Shown here one piece after another: positions 4,189 to 39,807 of a DNA stretch of 64,000 nucleotides. Under the pieces are notes generated by a model, which saw nothing but the letters and a program-made list of their open reading frames with translations, ran no database searches and was not told the origin of the DNA. Source of the DNA: Escherichia coli. GTDB lineage: Bacteria > Pseudomonadota > Gammaproteobacteria > Enterobacterales > Enterobacteriaceae. How positions within the stretch are numbered: the first letter of the stretch is position 1; each line of letters starts with the position of its first letter. The position numbers and the translations under genes were made by a program. The stretch is taken from assembly GCF_003018255.1 (NCBI RefSeq), contig NZ_CP027440.1. One strand, 5' to 3'.

Positions 4189-6450
4189 ATGTCGCAACAT
4201 AACGAAAAGAACCCACATCAGCACCAGTCACCACTACACGATTCCAGCGAAGCGAAACCGGGGATGGACTCACTGGCACCTGAAGACGGATCTCATCGTC
4301 CAGCGGCTGAACCAACACCGCCTGGTGCACAACCTACCGCCCCAGGGAGCCTGAAAGCCCCTGATACGCGTAACGAAAAACTTAATTCTCTGGAAGACGT
4401 ACGCAAAGGCAGTGAAAATTATGCGCTGACCACTAACCAGGGCGTGCGCATCGCCGATGATCAAAACTCACTGCGTGCCGGTAGCCGTGGTCCAACGCTG
4501 CTGGAAGATTTTATTCTGCGCGAGAAAATCACTCACTTTGACCATGAGCGCATCCCGGAACGTATTGTTCATGCACGCGGATCAGCCGCTCACGGTTATT
4601 TCCAGCCATATAAAAGCTTAAGCGATATCACCAAAGCGGATTTCCTCTCAGATCCGAACAAAATCACCCCAGTATTTGTACGTTTCTCTACCGTTCAGGG
4701 TGGTGCTGGCTCTGCCGATACCGTGCGTGATATCCGTGGCTTTGCCACCAAGTTCTATACTGAAGAGGGTATTTTTGACCTCGTTGGCAATAACACGCCA
4801 ATCTTCTTTATCCAGGATGCGCATAAATTCCCCGATTTTGTTCATGCGGTAAAACCAGAACCGCACTGGGCAATTCCACAAGGGCAAAGCGCCCACGATA
4901 CTTTCTGGGATTATGTTTCTCTGCAACCTGAAACTCTGCACAACGTGATGTGGGCGATGTCGGATCGCGGGATCCCGCGCAGTTACCGCACCATGGAAGG
5001 CTTCGGTATTCACACCTTCCGCCTGATTAATGCCGAAGGGAAGGCAACGTTCGTACGTTTCCACTGGAAACCACTGGCAGGTAAAGCCTCACTCGTTTGG
5101 GATGAAGCACAAAAACTAACCGGACGTGACCCGGACTTCCACCGCCGCGAGTTGTGGGAAGCCATCGAAGCAGGCGATTTTCCGGAATACGAACTGGGCT
5201 TCCAGTTGATTCCTGAGGAAGATGAATTTAAGTTCGACTTCGACCTTCTTGATCCAACTAAACTTATCCCGGAAGAACTGGTGCCCGTTCAGCGTGTCGG
5301 CAAAATGGTGCTCAATCGCAATCCGGATAACTTTTTTGCCGAAAACGAACAAGCAGCATTCCATCCAGGTCATATTGTTCCTGGTCTGGACTTCACCAAT
5401 GATCCCCTGTTGCAGGGACGTTTGTTCTCTTATACCGATACACAAATCAGTCGTCTTGGTGGGCCGAATTTCCATGAGATTCCGATTAACCGTCCGACCT
5501 GCCCTTACCATAATTTCCAGCGTGATGGCATGCATCGTATGGGGATCGACACTAACCCGGCGAATTACGAACCGAACTCGATCAACGATAACTGGCCGCG
5601 CGAAACACCGCCGGGGCCGAAACGCGGCGGTTTTGAATCATACCAGGAACGCGTGGAAGGCAATAAAGTTCGCGAGCGCAGCCCATCATTTGGCGAATAT
5701 TATTCTCATCCGCGCCTGTTCTGGTTAAGTCAGACGCCGTTCGAGCAGCGCCATATTGTTGATGGTTTTAGTTTTGAGTTAAGCAAAGTAGTACGCCCGT
5801 ATATTCGTGAGCGCGTTGTTGACCAGTTGGCGCATATCGATCTTAACCTTGCGCAGGCGGTAGCAAAAAATCTCGGTATTGAGCTGACTGACGATCAACT
5901 GAATATTACGCCGCCACCGGACGTCAACGGGCTGAAAAAAGATCCTGCGTTAAGTCTGTACGCCATTCCTGACGGTGATGTGAAAGGTCGCGTGGTAGCG
6001 ATTTTGCTTAATGATGAAGTGAGATCGGCAGACCTTCTGGCCATTCTCAAGGCGCTGAAGGCCAAAGGCGTTCATGCCAAACTGCTCTATTCCCGAATGG
6101 GTGAAGTGACTGCGGATGACGGTACGGTGTTGCCTATAGCCGCTACCTTTGCCGGTGCGCCTTCGCTGACGGTCGATGCGGTCATTGTCCCTTGCGGCAA
6201 TATCGCGGATATCGCTGACAACGGCGATGCCAACTACTATCTGATGGAAGCCTACAAACACCTTAAACCGATTGCGCTGGCAGGAGACGCGCGCAAGTTT
6301 AAAGCAACAATCAAGGTCGCTGACCAGGGTGAAGAAGGGATTGTGGAAGCTGACAGCGCCGACGGTAGTTTTATGGATGAACTGTTAACGCTGATGGCAG
6401 CACACCGCGTGTGGTCACGTATTCCTAAGATTGACAAAATTCCTGCCTGA
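4189..6450 (+). CDS. katE: catalase HPII (large-subunit monofunctional catalase)
   Basis: 753-aa ORF with catalase core sequence; RBS aaggagacgag upstream. Confidence 0.95.
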
Positions 6451-6454
6451 TGGG

Positions 6455-6700
6455 AGGCGGCGCAGTTGCGCCGCCTCAAATGATTTACATAGTGCGCTTT
6501 GTTTATGTCGGATGCGGCGTGAACGCCTTATCCGGCCTACAAAACTGTGCAAATTCAATATATTGCAGGAAAAACGTAGGCCTGATAAGCGAAGCGCATC
6601 AGGCAGTTTTGCGTTTGTCAGCAGTCTCAAGCGGCGCAGTTACGCCGCCTTTGTAGGAATTAATCGCCGGATGCAAGGTTCACGCCGCATCTGGCAAACA
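6455..6700. repeat. BIME/RIP-type cluster of REP palindromes (katE-chbG intergenic)
   Basis: Hairpin GAGGCGGCGC...GCGCCGCCTC at 6455-6478; canonical REP units GGATGCGGCGTGAACGCCTTATCCGGCCTAC (about 6510-6545) and inverted copies at about 6578-6607 and 6663-6697; central segment resembles an IHF-site-containing RIP element. Confidence 0.8.
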
Positions 6701-29794: not shown

Positions 29795-31102
29795 ATGAAA
29801 CGTGTTTCTCAAATGACCGCGCTGGCAATGGCTTTAGGGCTGGCTTGCGCTTCTTCGTGGGCCGCTGAACTGGCGAAGCCTCTTACACTTGACCAGCTTC
29901 AACAACAAAATGGCAAAGCGATAGATACTCGCCCCAGCGCGTTTTATAACGGCTGGCCACAAACCTTAAATGGCCCTTCTGGTCATGAACCTGCCGCCTT
30001 AAACCTCTCTGCTAACTGGCTCGACAAAATGAGCACCGAACAGCTCAACGAGTGGATCAAGCAACATAACCTGAAAGCCGATGCTCCGGTGGCGCTGTAC
30101 GGTAATGACAAAGATGTCGACGCCGTCAAAAAGCGACTGCAAAAAGCAGGTTTTACGCATATCTCCATTCTGAGTGACGCGCTAAGCGAACCTTCCCGTC
30201 TGCAAAAACTGCCGCATTTTGAGCAGCTGGTTTATCCGCAATGGCTGCACGACCTGCAACAAGGTAAAGAGGTTACGGCGAAACCTGCCGGTGACTGGAA
30301 AGTCATTGAAGCGGCCTGGGGCGCTCCTAAGCTTTACCTTATCAGCCATATTCCCGGCGCTGACTACATCGATACCAACGAAGTGGAAAGCGAACCGCTG
30401 TGGAACAAAGTTTCTGATGAACAACTAAAAGCGATGCTGGCAAAACACGGCATTCGCCATGACACCACGGTCATTCTGTACGGGCGTGACGTATACGCTG
30501 CAGCGCGTGTGGCACAAATTATGCTCTACGCTGGCGTGAAAGATGTCCGCCTGCTGGACGGCGGCTGGCAAACCTGGTCCGACGCGGGACTGCCCGTTGA
30601 GCGCGGAACGCCACCGAAAGTGAAAGCGGAACCGGATTTCGGCGTGAAGATCCCGGCACAACCGCAACTGATGCTTGATATTGAACAAGCGCGTGGACTG
30701 CTGCATCGCCAGGATGCATCGCTGGTGAGCATTCGTTCGTGGCCAGAATTTATCGGTACGACCAGCGGTTACAGCTATATTAAACCAAAAGGTGAAATAG
30801 CCGGAGCACGTTGGGGACACGCTGGTAGCGACTCGACGCATATGGAAGATTTCCATAACCCGGATGGCACCATGCGTAGCGCCGATGATATTACCGCTAT
30901 GTGGAAAGCATGGAATATCAAGCCAGATCAGCAAGTTTCATTCTACTGCGGCACCGGCTGGCGCGCGTCAGAAACCTTTATGTACGCACGCGCAATGGGC
31001 TGGAATAACGTCTCCGTTTATGACGGTGGCTGGTACGAATGGAGCAGCGATCCAAAAAATCCGGTAGCAACCGGTGAACGCGGCCCGGACAGCAGTAAAT
31101 AA
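29795..31102 (+). CDS. ynjE: periplasmic multi-domain rhodanese (thiosulfate sulfurtransferase) YnjE
   Basis: ORF 29780-31102; start placed at ATG 29795; signal peptide; rhodanese active-site loop CGTGWR. Confidence 0.85.
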   Translation: MKRVSQMTALAMALGLACASSWAAELAKPLTLDQLQQQNGKAIDTRPSAFYNGWPQTLNGPSGHEPAALNLSANWLDKMSTEQLNEWIKQHNLKADAPVALYGNDKDVDAVKKRLQKAGFTHISILSDALSEPSRLQKLPHFEQLVYPQWLHDLQQGKEVTAKPAGDWKVIEAAWGAPKLYLISHIPGADYIDTNEVESEPLWNKVSDEQLKAMLAKHGIRHDTTVILYGRDVYAAARVAQIMLYAGVKDVRLLDGGWQTWSDAGLPVERGTPPKVKAEPDFGVKIPAQPQLMLDIEQARGLLHRQDASLVSIRSWPEFIGTTSGYSYIKPKGEIAGARWGHAGSDSTHMEDFHNPDGTMRSADDITAMWKAWNIKPDQQVSFYCGTGWRASETFMYARAMGWNNVSVYDGGWYEWSSDPKNPVATGERGPDSSK

Positions 31103-31110
31103 CATTGCAA

Positions 31111-31737
31111 TTACTGACGCTGGAGCGACTTCAGCGTCAGATACCCACTCCACACCCGCGTAAAGGTCGTCATCCAGCACAACGCACCAAATACCCACGC
31201 AAACCACGGAAAACAGGCCGGAAAGAGGCAACTCAGAACAAACAGCAAAATCGTCTCGCTGCCTTCGGTTAAGCCGCCCAGATAATAAAACGATTTATGC
31301 GCATAACCGGGATTATCAATCTGATGTTTCGCCGCCAGCGCAGCAAAAGCGAGAAAACTGCTGCCCGTGCCGATAAACGCAAACAACAGCCAGCCTCCGG
31401 CCAGCGCGTTTTGTTCTGGTGCGGCGAGAATAAAACCAAACGGCACCAGCGCGTAAAAGAGAAAATCGAGAGAAATATCGAGAAAGCCGCCCGCGTCGGT
31501 AAGTCCTCTGCGCCGCGCCAGCGCACCGTCCAGACCATCAAGCAGCCTGTTCAACAAAATGACGATTAGCGCCGCCAGATACCAGCCCAGCGCCAGAAAC
31601 GGCAGTGCCAGCACGCCGATGGCAAATCCCACTAATGTTAAACCATCTGGCGTGATGCCGGGTTTATCCAGCACCTTCACACACTGATGCAACAAAGGTT
31701 TAATTCGGGGATGAAGATGGCGGTCTAGCACAGGCAC
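31111..31737 (-). CDS. ynjF: CDP-alcohol phosphatidyltransferase family membrane protein YnjF
   Basis: 208-aa ORF with D-G-x2-A-R ... D motif region (DGLDGALARRRG). Confidence 0.8.
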   Translation of the reverse strand: MPVLDRHLHPRIKPLLHQCVKVLDKPGITPDGLTLVGFAIGVLALPFLALGWYLAALIVILLNRLLDGLDGALARRRGLTDAGGFLDISLDFLFYALVPFGFILAAPEQNALAGGWLLFAFIGTGSSFLAFAALAAKHQIDNPGYAHKSFYYLGGLTEGSETILLFVLSCLFPACFPWFAWVFGALCWMTTFTRVWSGYLTLKSLQRQ

Positions 31738-31817
31738 TCCTTAAATATAAAGCCTTTCCGATTGAGCAACAGTGCGGATATTATGGCATTTTTCGCTTAT
31801 CTGCCCGTGTGTAATTT

Positions 31818-32225
31818 ATGAAAATGATTGAAGTTGTTGCCGCCATCATTGAACGTGATGGCAAAATTTTACTCGCGCAACGCCCCGCCCAGAGCGATCA
31901 GGCGGGATTATGGGAGTTTGCCGGTGGTAAAGTCGAGCCGGATGAAAGCCAGCGGCAGGCGCTGGTGCGTGAGTTAAACGAAGAACTGGGCATCGAAGCA
32001 ACTGTTGGTGACTATGTTGCCAGCCATCAGCGAGAAGTTTCGGGGCGGATTATCCATCTTCATGCCTGGCACGTACCCGACTTCCACGGGACGTTACAGG
32101 CACATGAACATCAGGCGCTGGTCTGGTGCTCACCTGAAGAGGCGCTGCAATATCCGCTGGCCCCTGCTGACATTCCATTATTAGAGGCGTTTATGGCTTT
32201 ACGCGCCGCCAGACCAGCGGATTAG
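31818..32225 (+). CDS. nudG: Nudix hydrolase NudG (CTP pyrophosphohydrolase)
   Basis: 135-aa ORF with Nudix box GGKVEPDESQRQALVRELNEELGI. Confidence 0.9.
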   Translation: MKMIEVVAAIIERDGKILLAQRPAQSDQAGLWEFAGGKVEPDESQRQALVRELNEELGIEATVGDYVASHQREVSGRIIHLHAWHVPDFHGTLQAHEHQALVWCSPEEALQYPLAPADIPLLEAFMALRAARPAD

Positions 32226-32463
32226 TGCTAAGGTTTTTGTCATCCTGTTGGCATTGCAGCAGTATTCCTTCGGCTTTAATTACCGCCCCTTCAGAATAAT
32301 TTTGATCCTGATAAACGCAGCACTGAGTACAGGGCTGCGCTGACTGCCCGCCTGAACTGAACACTTCTGGCGGTACGTTTACCTCCACGTCCGGACGATA
32401 ATGCGGGTTAGCCAGTGCAATTATTGGAAATGCTAATACTACGGCGAACAATGCTCGACTCAC
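32191..32463 (-). CDS. ynjH: DUF1496 secreted protein YnjH
   Basis: 90-aa ORF with signal peptide; 3' end overlaps nudG by 35 bp. Confidence 0.75.
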   Translation of the reverse strand: MSRALFAVVLAFPIIALANPHYRPDVEVNVPPEVFSSGGQSAQPCTQCCVYQDQNYSEGAVIKAEGILLQCQQDDKNLSTNPLVWRRVKP

Positions 32464-32698
32464 AGGGAACTCCTTAACGTTATTGTCTCTTCTACAGATA
32501 ACGGTAGCCGGGCGGCAAAACTTTAGCGTCTGAGTTATCGCATTTGGTTATGAGATTACTCTCGTTATTAATTTGCTTTCCTGGGTCATTTTTTTCTTGC
32601 TTACCGTCACATTCTTGATGGTATAGTCGAAAACTGCAAAAGCACATGACATAAACAACATAAGCATAATCGTATTAATATATAAGGGTTTTATATCT

Positions 32699-34042
32699 AT
32701 GGATCAGACATATTCTCTGGAGTCATTCCTCAACCATGTCCAAAAGCGCGACCCGAATCAAACCGAGTTCGCGCAAGCCGTTCGTGAAGTAATGACCACA
32801 CTCTGGCCTTTTCTTGAACAAAATCCAAAATATCGTCAGATGTCATTACTGGAGCGTCTGGTTGAACCGGAGCGCGTGATCCAGTTTCGCGTGGTATGGG
32901 TTGATGATCGCAACCAGGTGCAGGTCAACCGCGCATGGCGCGTGCAATTCAGCTCCGCTATCGGTCCGTACAAAGGCGGTATGCGCTTCCACCCTTCAGT
33001 AAACCTTTCCATTCTCAAATTCCTCGGCTTCGAGCAAACCTTTAAAAATGCCCTGACAACCCTGCCGATGGGCGGTGGTAAAGGCGGCAGCGATTTCGAC
33101 CCGAAAGGGAAAAGCGAAGGCGAAGTTATGCGTTTTTGCCAGGCGCTGATGACTGAACTGTATCGCCACCTGGGCGCGGATACTGACGTTCCGGCAGGTG
33201 ATATCGGCGTTGGTGGTCGTGAAGTCGGCTTTATGGCGGGGATGATGAAAAAGCTCTCCAACAATACCGCCTGCGTCTTCACCGGTAAGGGCCTTTCATT
33301 TGGCGGCAGTCTTATTCGCCCGGAAGCTACCGGCTACGGTCTGGTTTATTTCACCGAAGCAATGCTAAAACGCCACGGTATGGGTTTTGAAGGGATGCGA
33401 GTTTCCGTTTCTGGCTCCGGCAACGTCGCCCAGTACGCTATCGAAAAAGCGATGGAATTTGGTGCTCGTGTGATCACTGCGTCAGACTCCAGCGGCACTG
33501 TAGTTGATGAAAGCGGATTCACGAAAGAGAAACTGGCACGTCTTATCGAAATCAAAGCCAGCCGCGATGGTCGAGTGGCTGATTACGCCAAAGAATTTGG
33601 TCTGGTCTATCTCGAAGGCCAACAACCGTGGTCTGTACCGGTTGATATCGCCCTGCCTTGCGCCACCCAGAACGAACTGGATGTTGACGCCGCGCATCAG
33701 CTTATCGCCAATGGCGTTAAAGCCGTCGCCGAAGGGGCAAATATGCCGACCACCATCGAAGCGACTGAACTGTTCCAGCAGGCAGGCGTACTGTTTGCAC
33801 CGGGTAAAGCGGCTAATGCTGGCGGTGTAGCAACATCGGGCCTGGAAATGGCGCAAAACGCTGCGCGCCTGGGCTGGAAAGCCGAGAAAGTTGACGCACG
33901 TTTGCATCACATCATGCTGGATATCCACCATGCCTGTGTTGAGCATGGTGGTGAAGGTGAGCAAACCAACTACGTGCAGGGGGCGAACATTGCCGGTTTT
34001 GTGAAGGTTGCGGATGCGATGTTAAGCCAGGGCGTGATTTAA
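32699..34042 (+). CDS. gdhA: NADP-specific glutamate dehydrogenase
   Basis: 447-aa ORF with GDH family sequence (GPYKGGMRFHP, catalytic Lys region). Confidence 0.95.
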   Translation: MDQTYSLESFLNHVQKRDPNQTEFAQAVREVMTTLWPFLEQNPKYRQMSLLERLVEPERVIQFRVVWVDDRNQVQVNRAWRVQFSSAIGPYKGGMRFHPSVNLSILKFLGFEQTFKNALTTLPMGGGKGGSDFDPKGKSEGEVMRFCQALMTELYRHLGADTDVPAGDIGVGGREVGFMAGMMKKLSNNTACVFTGKGLSFGGSLIRPEATGYGLVYFTEAMLKRHGMGFEGMRVSVSGSGNVAQYAIEKAMEFGARVITASDSSGTVVDESGFTKEKLARLIEIKASRDGRVADYAKEFGLVYLEGQQPWSVPVDIALPCATQNELDVDAAHQLIANGVKAVAEGANMPTTIEATELFQQAGVLFAPGKAANAGGVATSGLEMAQNAARLGWKAEKVDARLHHIMLDIHHACVEHGGEGEQTNYVQGANIAGFVKVADAMLSQGVI

Positions 34043-34050
34043 GACAATTG

Positions 34051-34082
34051 TGCCGGATACAGCGCAAACGCCTTATCCGGCC
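34051..34082. repeat. REP palindrome (gdhA-topB intergenic)
   Basis: TGCCGGATACAGCGCAAACGCCTTATCCGGCC. Confidence 0.7.
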
Positions 34083-34118
34083 ATAAAAATCTTCAGTATC
34101 AGATGGTTGAAAGAACCT

Positions 34119-36074
34119 TTATATTATCACTCCATTGCCCGCCTCTTCTGATGGCGGGCTTTTTTTCGGCGCTCTCTTGCGTGGCGAATCCTTTTTCTTC
34201 CCTTCTCCACCGCCGGGAGCCATTATTCCCCGAAACTGCCTTACCGACGTGCGCTTTGCCTGATCAATCAACTGGTACAATGTCCCCACCAGCGGCTGCA
34301 TAAAGTCCTGATAGCGACACTGCTTTTCGCTGATTTGCGTCAGCACCGATTCCCAGTGCGCGGTCATGTCCGGTCGCGTCGCCATTTCTGGCAGCGAATG
34401 GAATAGCGCTTTTCCGGCGTCGGTGGAGTGGATATAGCGCCCTTTTTTGGTCAGGAAGCCTCGCTTGAACAGCAGTTCAATAATCCCGGCGCGAGTCGCT
34501 TCTGTCCCCAGACCATCGGTCGCACGAAGGATCTTTTTCAGATCTTTGTCCTGCACAAAACGTGCTATCCCGGTCATCGCTGAAAGCAGTGTTGCATCGG
34601 TAAAATGGCGCGGCGGCTGGGTTTGCCGCTCTACCACTTCACCTTTTTCACACAGCAACTCATCGCCTTTCGCCACCACAGGCAGCGGCGTGCCGTCGTT
34701 TTCTTCATCGCGCTCTTTGCTGCCTAACAGTGTGCGCCAGCCTGCTTCAGCAAGAAAACGGGCTTTAGCGACAAATTTGCCTTTGGCAATGTCCAGTTCG
34801 ATAACACACTTGCGGAACACCGCATCCGGGCAGAACTGCATCAAATACTGACGGGCAATCAGGTTATAGACCTTCGCTTCGTTCTCCGTCAGGTTGATCG
34901 CAGAACTCCGTGCGGTCGGGATGATGGCGTGGTGCGCATCGACTTTTTTGTCATCCCAACAGCGGTTGCGTATATCTGGATCGACCACTGGCTGCGGCAA
35001 CAGATCTGGTGCATGAACGCTGATAGCATTCATCACCGCGTGGCGTCCGGCAAAATGTTCTTCTGGCAAATAGCGGCAATCGGAACGCGGATAAGTGATT
35101 AGCTTGTGCGTTTCGTACAGCTTCTGGCAGATATCAAGCACGTTCTGCGCGCTCAGACCAAAACGTTTAGCCGCTTCAATCTGCAACGCCGAAAGCGAAA
35201 AAGGCAGCGGCGCGGATTCTGATTCCCGTTTATCGTTATAGCTGGTGACAATAGCTGGTTGACCACTAATGCGGTTAACCACATGCTCCGCCAGTGGACG
35301 ATGTAATAAGCGCCCTTCTTCATCCTGGTACGGTTCACACGCTTCGCTCGGTTGCCAGATAGCGGTAAACCGCTCATCGGCAGGTGTCACGATATGTGCT
35401 TTGACTTCAAAGAAGTCTTTCGCCACGAAGTTTTCAATCTCTTCGTCGCGGCGCACCACCAGTCCGAGTACGGGCGTCTGCACGCGTCCCACGGAAAGCA
35501 CGCCCTGATAACCGGCATTGCGACCGAGAATGGTATACGCACGGGTCATATTAATGCCGTACAGCCAGTCAGCTCGCGCACGCGCCAGTGCAGAAACGCA
35601 CAGCGGTACAAACTCGCTATTGGAGCGAAGACGATCGATCGCCCGCTCAACCGCCTGCGGGTTCAGGTCGTTTATCAAACAACGCTGTACCTGCTGGCGC
35701 TTTTCCGGTGCCAGTTGCAGGTAGTCCAGCACTTCATCCACCAGCAGTTGCCCTTCGCGATCCGGGTCTCCGGCGTGAACGATTTCGCTGGCTTCATGCA
35801 GGAAGCGTTTGATGACATTAAGTTGTTTAGTCACGGAGGGTCGGGGCTGTAATTGCCACTTTTCCGGGACAATCGGCAAATCCGCAAGATTCCAGCGCGC
35901 ATAGCGGCTGTCGTAGGCGTCTGGCTGCGCCTGCTCAAGCAGGTGACCGATACACCAGGTCACCACCTGACCATTACCGCACTCGATAAAGCCATCGCCT
36001 TTCCGGTGCGGTTTAGGCAGGACATCAGCAATGGCGCGCGCCAGACTCGGTTTTTCGGCAATAAACAACCGCAT
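34119..36074 (-). CDS. topB: DNA topoisomerase III
   Basis: ORF 34119-36131; start placed at ATG 36074 ([16 protein letters not shown]...); Toprim/type IA topoisomerase. Confidence 0.9.
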
Positions 36075-36078
36075 TGAA

Positions 36079-37122
36079 TTAACGGATCTCAACCATGGCA
36101 CGACCGCCGCGCGCTGGCACCAGTTCGCCAATCGCCGTCAGTTCAATGCCAAACTCGGCGGCTGTAGCTTTGACCTCATTTTCTGCTTCCGGCATGACCG
36201 CCAGCAGCAAACCGCCAGAAGTTTGCGGATCGCACAGCAGTTCGCGCACTTCACGCGGCATTTCACCCATCAGATGACCGTAGCTGGCAAAGTTACGTTC
36301 GGTGCCGCCAGGCACTGCGCCCAACTTAATGTACTCTTCAACCCCCGGCAATTTCGGGATCGCGTCATAGTCGACGCGCGCCTGCACACCTGCGCCCTGA
36401 CACATTTCGCTTAAATGCCCCAGTAAACCAAAACCCGTAACGTCGGTCATCGCTTTTACGCCTTCGATGTTGGCAAAGGACGCGCCTGCGATGTTCATCC
36501 GGCACATCACTTCCGTCGCCAGTCCCTGATGTTCTGGTTTCAGCAGTGATTTTTTCTCAGCCGTGGTAAGAACGCCAATCCCCAGAGGTTTCGTCAGGAA
36601 CAGTTTGCATCCGGCTTGTGCGGTACTGTTTTTCTTCACCCGCTCGGTAGGTACGATCCCCGTTACCGCCAGACCAAAAATCGGCTCCGGCGCATCGATG
36701 GAGTGACCGCCAGCCAGCGCAATACCCGCCTGACGGCATGCATGGCGTCCACCTTCGGTCACTTCGCGGGCAATTTCCGGGGAAAGTTTGTTAATCGGCC
36801 AGCCGAGGATCGCAATCGCCATAATCGGTTTGCCGCCCATTGCGAAGATATCGCTGATGGCGTTAGTCGCCGCAATGCGGCCAAAATCGAAAGGATTATC
36901 AACGATCGGCATAAAGAAGTCGGTGGTGCTGATAACGCTGGTGCCATTGCCCAGATCGTACACCGCCGCATCGTCGCGGGTTTCATTACCCACAAGCAAA
37001 TTCGGATCAACAAACTTCGCCTGCTCACTGTGCAGGATGGTTTCCAACACTTTTGGGGAAATTTTACAGCCGCAACCAGCGCCGTGGCTGTATTGGGTCA
37101 AACGAATCGAGTTCTCGCTCAT
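36079..37122 (-). CDS. selD: selenide, water dikinase (selenophosphate synthetase)
   Basis: ORF 36079-37128; start at ATG 37122 ([23 protein letters not shown]); 347 aa. Confidence 0.95.
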
Positions 37123-37238
37123 GGACATCTCCTGTCAATGCAATCCGGGTATGGTAACCCTCATTCCGTGAAGTGATAAGTGAGAGTGTCTGAATTCCTG
37201 CGCCTTTGCTCACAATCCAGACAGTTTCGCGACAATTA

Positions 37239-37790
37239 TCAGAAATAAGTCACAAACGGCGTCGGGTCCGGGACGTTTATCGACGTAGATGCTTTCAACT
37301 GCGGCGTACCGAGGTAGAGAAAACCGACAATTTTATCCTGCTCACGGCAACCGAATGCTTCACGCACTACCGGACTTTCAGTTAATGCACCACTGCGCCA
37401 GATGCCGCCAAACCCCTGGGCAACTGCTGCCATTTGCATCGCCATGACCGCGCATCCCGCAGACATTTCCTGTTCCCAGCGCGGGACTTTATGATTTTCT
37501 TCGCATTTCGCCACCACCGTTATGATGAGCGGTGCGCGGAACGGCGCATTACGCGCTTTGTCGATGGCTTTGTTATCACTACCGGCAGCAATCGCCCCCT
37601 GCTCCAGTACGGCGCTGAAACGCTCGCGCCCTTCCCCTTCAATCACAAAGAAATGCCACGGTTGCATGGACTTATGGTCCGGCGCACGCATAGCCGCACG
37701 CAGGATGTTTTGCAGTTGTTCACCCGTTGGCGCAGGTTCAGCCAGGCGGGAGGCGCTACGGCGATTGATCAATAGTTCGAGTGCATCCAT
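37239..37790 (-). CDS. ydjA: NAD(P)H nitroreductase-family protein YdjA
   Basis: ORF 37239-37808; start at ATG 37790 ([14 protein letters not shown]...); 183 aa. Confidence 0.9.
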
Positions 37791-37950
37791 TTGATTAACT
37801 CCTGTCATGATATTTATTCACAAAATTAACACGAGAGTGGATTTTGTTACAGCCCAGTCCGCAATTCCTGCTGACAAGTGCCGGTTGGGTCATTACGATA
37901 ACCACATCTATTGCGCCTGAAACAGGTGTGACCTTAAGTTGGGAGAATAC

Positions 37951-39807
37951 ATGCGAACCCTTTGGCGATTTATTGCCGGATTTTTTAAATGGACGTGGCG
38001 TCTGCTGAATTTCGTCCGTGAAATGGTACTTAACCTGTTCTTTATTTTTCTCGTGCTGGTTGGTGTGGGGATCTGGATGCAGGTCAGTGGTGGTGATTCG
38101 AAAGAAACGGCCAGTCGTGGCGCACTGCTGCTGGACATTTCTGGTGTGATCGTCGATAAACCCGACAGTTCTCAGCGGTTTAGTAAATTAAGCCGCCAGC
38201 TGCTTGGTGCCAGTTCCGATCGTCTGCAGGAAAACTCACTGTTTGATATCGTCAACACCATTCGCCAGGCGAAGGACGACCGCAATATCACCGGTATTGT
38301 GATGGATCTGAAAAACTTCGCAGGCGGCGACCAGCCGTCTATGCAGTACATCGGCAAAGCTCTGAAAGAGTTTCGTGATAGCGGGAAACCGGTTTATGCC
38401 GTTGGCGAGAACTACAGCCAGGGGCAATATTATCTCGCCAGTTTCGCCAATAAAATTTGGCTGTCTCCGCAAGGCGTGGTTGATCTGCACGGCTTTGCCA
38501 CCAACGGTCTGTACTACAAATCATTACTGGATAAGCTGAAAGTTTCCACCCATGTGTTCCGCGTGGGTACGTATAAATCTGCCGTTGAACCGTTTATTCG
38601 TGATGATATGTCGCCGGCAGCCCGCGAAGCTGACAGCCGCTGGATTGGTGAGCTGTGGCAAAACTATCTGAATACTGTTGCCGCTAACCGGCAGATCCCT
38701 GCTCAGCAGGTATTCCCTGGCGCGCAAGGGTTGCTTGAGGGTTTAACCAAAACCGGTGGCGATACCGCGAAATATGCGCTGGAAAACAAGCTGGTCGATG
38801 CACTGGCATCGAGTGCCGAAATCGAAAAAACTCTGACCAAAGAGTTCGGCTGGAGCAAGACTGATAAAAATTATCGCGCCATCAGTTATTACGATTACGC
38901 ATTGAAAACGCCGGCAGATACCGGTGACAGCATCGGAGTCGTCTTCGCTAATGGCGCAATTATGGATGGCGAGGAAACTCAGGGGAATGTTGGCGGTGAT
39001 ACCACTGCGGCACAAATCCGCGACGCTCGCCTTGACCCGAAAGTGAAAGCGATTGTCCTGCGTGTTAATAGCCCAGGCGGCAGCGTTACCGCGTCTGAAG
39101 TGATTCGCGCTGAACTGGCAGCAGCCCGGGCAGCGGGTAAGCCTGTGGTTGTATCGATGGGCGGCATGGCGGCATCTGGTGGTTACTGGATTTCCACACC
39201 AGCTAATTACATTGTGGCTAACCCCAGCACCCTGACCGGTTCTATCGGTATCTTCGGCGTGATCACCACCGTAGAAAATAGTCTGGATTCGATTGGTGTT
39301 CATACTGATGGTGTCTCAACTTCACCGCTGGCGGATGTTTCTATCACCAGAGCACTGCCGCCGGAAGCGCAGCAGATGATGCAGTTAAGCATTGAGAATG
39401 GCTATAAACGCTTTATCACGCTGGTTGCTGATGCGCGTCATTCAACGCCAGAGCAGATTGATAAAATCGCCCAGGGCCATGTCTGGACCGGTCAGGATGC
39501 AAAAGCTAACGGGCTGGTCGATAGTCTCGGGGATTTCGATGATGCGGTCGCCAAAGCAGCAGAGCTGGCAAAAGTGAAACAGTGGCATCTGGAATACTAC
39601 GTTGATGAACCGACCTTCTTCGACAAAGTGATGGACAACATGTCTGGTTCTGTCCGGGCAATGTTGCCAGATGCGTTCCAGGCCATGTTACCTGCACCGC
39701 TGGCCTCGGTAGCCTCTACCGTTAAAAGTGAAAGCGACAAGCTGGCAGCGTTTAACGACCCACAAAACCGTTATGCGTTTTGCCTGACCTGCGCCAACGT
39801 GCGTTAA
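37951..39807 (+). CDS. sppA: signal peptide peptidase A (protease IV)
   Basis: ORF 37939-39807; start at ATG 37951 with RBS gggaga; 618 aa tandem ClpP/crotonase-fold. Confidence 0.95.

Follow-up and report, generated by a model that had tools for sequence, protein, structure and literature searches.

Convergent gdhA and topB genes in the window (the whole 64-kb stretch of Escherichia coli DNA analyzed here, 64,000 nucleotides) are separated by a 76-bp spacer that very likely represents the ancestral, unoccupied allele of this junction, into which ynjI was never inserted, with the ynjI of K-12 being an acquired cassette. The empty state is the one found in the outgroups, and both ynjI and a second cargo, an Hsp70 island, look derived, so that no additional event has to be assumed for the empty state. 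The K-12 gene would then be accessory cargo at a conserved convergent-gene junction. The arrangement seen in the window is that of ST131 and UTI89-type strains, which is nothing new in kind and matters little beyond bookkeeping. The comparison also shows that the alleles of the site differ in the C-terminal tail of TopB, and it points to a hairpin within the topB coding sequence that probably terminates gdhA transcription.

The gdhA–topB junction in the window

The gene for the NADP-specific glutamate dehydrogenase, gdhA (447 aa), occupies 32699..34042 on the plus strand, as placed by the list of open reading frames and by tblastn, and ends with a TAA codon at 34040–34042. The annotated gdhA of strain JNE23-011 has the same sequence (100% identity). 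Facing it on the minus strand is topB (DNA topoisomerase III, 651 aa), which extends over 34119..36074 and has its stop codon at 34119–34121. The gene ends at 34042 and 34119 bear out an earlier note on this DNA, which had described a 76-bp spacer with a REP. The spacer (34043..34118) is the unoccupied form of a site for which we find three alleles, and one REP, or palindromic unit, is its sole structured feature. A promoter and terminator scan of the 76 bp gave no match. In the literature, we found no paper that deals with gdhA and topB together.

At the same chromosomal site, MG1655 (NC_000913.3) carries ynjI (b1762; 346 aa, DUF1266, minus strand) between gdhA (b1761) and topB (b1763), and EC600 also has ynjI between the two genes. 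The K-12 gene order given in the earlier note is thus correct. The reported absence of ynjI from the window is also borne out, as tblastn of the K-12 YnjI protein against the 64 kb returned no match. The possibility that K-12 has the same 76-bp spacer was checked and is not so; the MG1655 spacer is 1,284 bp long. The junction had been labeled a site of deletion or non-acquisition relative to K-12. That label is correct, and of its two halves the evidence from outgroup synteny and spacer homology favors non-acquisition over deletion.

Three linked alleles among complete genomes

The site was surveyed in 5,426 complete E. coli genomes, where any match was counted unless a coverage is given. The ynjI cassette is the most frequent form, with matches in 3,506 genomes (~65%; 3,457 at ≥80% coverage), among them K-12, 55989, and O157. 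The empty allele with a REP, which is the window type, was queried with 106 nt across the junction (34030–34135) and is matched in 1,530 genomes (about 28%; 1,494 at ≥80% coverage), including O25b:H4-ST131 and UTI89; 1,181 of the 5,426 match at ≥99% identity, and 36 of the 1,530 have an interrupted junction. The third allele carries an island of ~4.7 kb that encodes a 266-aa protein, an Hsp70, and a J-domain/Sel1 protein (L006:10999-15682, EcPF5/CFT073-type), and it has a third topB tail that is unrelated to the other two. It is represented by CFT073, 536, and ATCC 25922. Its 369 matches include partial ones, with only 96 covering ≥80% of the 4.7-kb query and one being a 64-nt fragment. In place of the REP, the island allele has an AT-rich hairpin and a T-run after gdhA.

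Each form of cargo is linked to its own topB tail. The K-12-type tail is present in 3,522 of the 5,426 genomes and is linked to ynjI, with at most 16 of the 3,522 lacking any ynjI match. The window-type tail is found in exactly 1,530 genomes and is linked to the empty junction. When the two tail counts (3,522 and 1,530) are added to the 369 island matches, about 5,421 of the 5,426 genomes are accounted for. The gdhA–topB site is an ordinary gene-content polymorphism with three linked alleles.

The differences between alleles extend beyond the spacer into both neighboring genes. The allele-specific 3′ segment of topB (34119..34300, minus strand) encodes a K/R-rich C-terminal tail that comprises about the last 45–60 codons. 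Identity to K-12 is 75% over the last 182 nt of topB and 96% over the next 400 nt; in the protein, residues 1–608 are identical between the window and K-12, and the last ~45 diverge. The window tail is closer to that of E. albertii (84.6%) than to that of K-12 (75%). On the opposite side, the last ~20 nt of gdhA contain a cluster of differences between the window and K-12. Because of the differences at the topB tail and the gdhA end, the polymorphism is evidently a block replacement that is bounded inside both flanking genes, and not a clean indel. Since the C-terminal tail of TopB, and not just the cargo, varies between alleles, strain comparisons should not treat this tail as orthologous.

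Origin of the empty allele

We scanned one genome per species with TopB as the anchor, which yielded 80 loci. In about 50 of the 80, gdhA is directly convergent on topB, with spacers that range from −4 bp (an overlap) to ~450 bp and are mostly <150 bp. This arrangement is seen in Salmonella, many Citrobacter, Enterobacter, Lelliottia, Kosakonia, Kluyvera, Raoultella, Pseudocitrobacter, E. albertii, and two divergent Escherichia lineages. Among the 80 loci, only those of K-12-type E. coli and of Escherichia sp. MOD1-EC7003 have ynjI. Over its whole length, the spacer of the window can be aligned with the ynjI-less spacers of E. albertii, Escherichia sp. E1V33, and L007, in which the REP has the same place and orientation as in the window. 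The 1,284-bp spacer of K-12 and that of the window have nothing in common beyond 9-mers.

The composition of the cargo can be set beside these alignments. The ynjI gene has 41.3% GC and its promoter spacer 35.4%, the Hsp70 island has 41.8%, and the gdhA and topB flanks have 53–55%. The ynjI promoter is activated by BglJ-RcsB, and expression is moderately up in an hns stpA mutant (PMC3950696). The low GC content and this regulation fit foreign DNA. We therefore favor, as stated at the outset, an ancestral unoccupied allele in the window, and ynjI would be a horizontally acquired, low-GC cassette that inserted into an allele whose topB tail was of another type. Escherichia sp. E1V33 has a K-12-like topB tail and yet its site is empty, so the tail dimorphism would be older than the ynjI insertion. 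A finding that speaks against the ancestral-empty reading is that a divergent Escherichia lineage (L010) carries ynjI. It follows that the ynjI insertion is old or that it has moved between lineages.

Cargo at this junction is not limited to Escherichia. Loci from other genera (L032, L049, L053, L061, and L071) have unrelated cargo of 3.5–7 kb downstream of topB, at the same place, and this cargo includes a T6SS Hcp; a porin/PTS/beta-lactamase-family set; a TRAP transporter; and an MFS transporter with an enolase-superfamily enzyme. The L032 junction also carries an Hsp70/J pair. Since the cargo in these genera is unrelated, the junction is, by all appearances, a recurrent insertion point across Enterobacteriaceae.

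An empty junction could also have been regained. In that case, an ancestor of the window strain had ynjI or the Hsp70 island, and homologous recombination replaced the stretch from the gdhA 3′ end to ~180 nt into topB with an imported empty allele. We consider this unlikely, though several observations agree with it. The flanks are mosaic with respect to K-12 and the island strain EcPF5, with 90–94% patches inside gdhA, and the window is 99–100% identical to EcPF5 over topB-selD-ydjA, yet EcPF5 has the island. Island alleles (CFT073, 536, and ATCC 25922) and empty alleles (ST131 and UTI89) coexist in one phylogroup, B2, to which all of these strains belong. Moreover, the allele boundaries fall inside conserved flanking genes, as an exchange by recombination would give. 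What tells against an imported allele is that the empty allele is the outgroup state, that the spacers of the window and of the outgroups are orthologous, and that the island and ynjI, with 41.8% and 41.3% GC, look like derived insertions.

Finally, ynjI could simply have been deleted from a K-12-like allele, perhaps by recombination at REPs that left one REP as a scar. This is highly improbable and can be regarded as effectively excluded. REPs are documented at recombination junctions, as in lambda bio phages and in the F′128 amplification (PMC1525189), and in K-12 two REPs separate gdhA from ynjI, but the window REP is unlike those two in sequence and is orthologous to the outgroup REP, the window has neither a K-12-type topB tail nor any remnant of the K-12 spacer at the junction, its tail being nearer to E. 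albertii, and the type of tail is almost perfectly linked to the cargo across the 3,522 genomes with a K-12-type tail.

The REP element

The REP lies at 34052..34081, with no strand assigned. Its two arms, 34052–34064 (GCCGGATACAGCG) and 34069–34081 (CGCCTTATCCGGC), are 13 nt each and 85% complementary, and they provide a GCCGGAT...ATCCGGC stem. The palindrome had been placed at 34051–34082, which is right to within 1 nt, and the predicted hairpin reaches about 34048–34085. As RNA, the element folds with −21.1 kcal/mol (z = −5.0), and 0 of 200 shuffles are equally stable; the hairpin forms as well in the minus-strand fold of 34036–34125, which has −25.7 kcal/mol. The REP core GCCGGATAAGGCGTTTRCGC is present in the spacer with 0 mismatches, and read on the minus strand the core is GCCGGATAAGGCGTTTGCGC, a canonical REP sequence. 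A second copy of the core (20 nt, 1 mismatch) is located at 6517–6536 on the minus strand of the window, for which the chance expectation is 0.01. Rfam gave no match in 31000–38000 at gathering thresholds. A permissive scan placed naRNA4, a family that we take to be REP-derived, at 34036–34082 on the minus strand with a sub-threshold score (32.8 bits, E 3e-4), and besides this returned only a chance-level ncS54 match.

These properties are those of a REP. The element is an imperfect, GC-rich palindrome of the ~30–40 bp class that has GCC(G/T)GAT...ATC(C/A)GGC arms and a stable hairpin; it is extragenic, between the stop codons of gdhA and topB; with the second core at 6517–6536, it belongs to a dispersed multicopy family; and it is a target of the REP-specific IS1397. 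In strain ETEC4079, IS1397 interrupts the loop of the REP after 34067 and is accompanied by a duplication of GCAA (34064–34067), and in the blood isolate AF22 it is inserted in the same loop in the opposite orientation. IS1397 has hit the loop of this spacer REP at least twice, independently. Because IS1397 is documented as REP-specific (PMC1525189), its insertions in the loop identify the window element as a real member of the REP family.

The window element resembles E. coli REPs (PUs) in being a GC-rich imperfect palindrome of ~30–35 bp that is located between convergent genes, just 3′ of a stop codon. It differs from the E. coli REP clusters, or BIMEs, which have at least two alternating units with a linker; the 76-bp spacer holds a single unit, and alternating units are absent. 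In addition, the usual CCTAC tail is degenerate (CCATA) in the window unit. By the REP consensus, the unit is presumably Y-type. Related Escherichia have 1.5 to 3 REP units at the same site, as compared with one in the window, and the number is two or three in K-12, E. albertii, and Citrobacter. The single REP of the window is ordinary REP copy-number variation.

In K-12, the REP stem starts at the same place as in the window, 9 nt after the gdhA stop, and the position is occupied in the outgroups as well as by the two-REP cluster of K-12. The K-12 cluster differs in that its two units are inversely oriented and unlike the window unit in sequence, and in that ynjI comes next in K-12 and topB in the window. 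The first K-12 unit is presumably Z-like by the same consensus, which would make it a PU type different from that of the window. The earlier note had read the REP as the mark of an indel junction. This does not hold, since K-12 and the outgroups have REPs in the same position, and the window REP is an ordinary resident element and not an indel scar. It would have been inherited from the Escherichia ancestor as a reduced form of a REP cluster that varies between lineages.

The K-12 gdhA REPs have been studied experimentally, although the window unit is of a different sequence type. When a REP that follows K-12 gdhA is deleted, the stability of the mRNA is affected (Merino et al. 1987, Gene 58:305, as cited in PMC12306157). 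The REP of the window is expected to be transcribed at the beginning of the gdhA 3′ UTR, and by the K-12 precedent its hairpin would shield gdhA mRNA from 3′-to-5′ decay. A rule quoted in PMC12306157 holds that REPs located ≤15 nt after a stop codon stall terminating ribosomes and lower translation. The distance from the gdhA TAA (34040–34042) to the start of the REP stem at 34052 is 9 nt, which is within this limit, and the REP may slightly damp GdhA translation. As the K-12 spacing is also 9 nt, no difference between alleles in translational damping is predicted. Passages in PMC1525189 and PMC12306157 provide literature precedent for stabilization of upstream mRNA by REPs and for their binding of gyrase or DNA polymerase I. 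By analogy, we infer that the window REP may function in mRNA stabilization and translational damping. The palindrome could also fold in topB read-through transcripts and cap them.

A terminator-like hairpin within topB

Downstream of gdhA, a hairpin of the form GCCCGCC-N9-GGCGGGC followed by T7 is found at 34137..34166 on the plus strand, that is, in the sense of gdhA and inside topB codons. It is 95 nt past the gdhA stop and has a folding energy of −17.5 kcal/mol (z = −3.0). The 7-bp GC stem and the T7 run that follows it are the form of an intrinsic terminator. The built-in terminator scanner missed this hairpin because its loop is 9 nt and the limit of the scanner is 8. The hairpin is probably the intrinsic terminator of gdhA, and transcription of gdhA probably ends there. 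Compared with intrinsic terminators between convergent genes, the one in the window is distinguished by its location, which is in the opposing topB coding sequence and not in the spacer, and by its 9-nt loop.

The same hairpin and T-run are found in Citrobacter, Kosakonia, Pseudocitrobacter faecalis, Intestinirhabdus, L007, and E1V33, with energies of −12 to −19 kcal/mol. Across the lineages that share it, the loop varies freely, and changes in the stem are mostly C-to-T and keep the pairing. In Pluralibacter, this position is taken by a hairpin of other sequence. Both alleles with ynjI have a weak form of the shared hairpin, with −7.2 kcal/mol in K-12 and −7.9 kcal/mol in L010. The forms in Salmonella diarizonae (−8.1 kcal/mol) and E. 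albertii (−9.0 kcal/mol) are weak too, and the link to ynjI is therefore imperfect. A covariation pair-count shows 89% of cells paired, as compared with 29–56% for slid controls, with 0 double-sided changes and with the shuffles not exceeded. Conservation of the topB hairpin that is driven by structure is plausible; on the other hand, the 3′ arm could be conserved for its SPP codons alone.

Tentatively and with some doubt, we put forward the possibility that the junction is a cassette site with three alleles, that each of them has its own TopB tail, and that the gdhA terminator is written into the last ~16 codons of topB (KKSPPxxEAG) as dual-use sequence. On this reading, the terminator is kept from Escherichia to Citrobacter and Kosakonia and has decayed in the two alleles in which ynjI comes between gdhA and topB. 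If it is true, part of the conserved motif in a TopB tail that otherwise evolves fast is kept for the RNA structure of the neighboring gene and not for the function of TopB. The embedded terminator would be a small, testable case of overlapping coding and RNA-structure constraints.

Observations at individual loci

Several loci show features of their own. In E. albertii NBRC 107761 (L009, about 6151–6234), topB has an in-frame premature stop 27 codons early, and the codons past it can still be translated; this suggests that the TopB tail is dispensable or that the stop is a sequencing error. At the EC600 locus (L001:3299-3440), gdhA is annotated as a 123-nt hypothetical CDS and a shortened gdhA, which suggests a nonsense mutation or frameshift near the gdhA 5′ end in this K-12 derivative. 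Within the gdhA of the window, positions 32900–33100 are 90–94% identical to K-12 and 91–92% identical to EcPF5, as compared with 98–100% for the rest of the gene, and this patch looks like a small recombination tract.

HH97 was considered as a true ynjI deletion and rejected. Its spacer (L090:5000-5543) is 544 bp of C/A-rich, low-complexity, homopolymer-laden sequence on a K-12-type allele. The 544 bp are 78% similar to part of ynjI, and the spacer is probably an assembly error and not a real deletion. In E. coli ECE170 (L005, 1391-2806), an IS1 abuts a truncated J-domain gene, with spy/ves alongside; gdhA and its upstream neighbors appear to be deleted at this locus.

A reading of the gdhA–topB site as a defense island was dropped after PADLOC, which gave no meaningful defense-system match for YnjI and the three island proteins. 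Homology between YnjI and the 266-aa protein of the island, both of which adjoin topB, was likewise rejected, as the alignment spans only 49 aa at 33% (E 5e-4 in a single comparison). The YnjI (DUF1266) family and the Hsp70 and J/Sel1 families co-occur in the ybeR-djlB-ybeU-djlC-hscC cluster of K-12 (ybeQ-hscC, NC_000913.3 675570-683393), which hints that the ynjI and island cassettes may come from one HscC-like chaperone module family.
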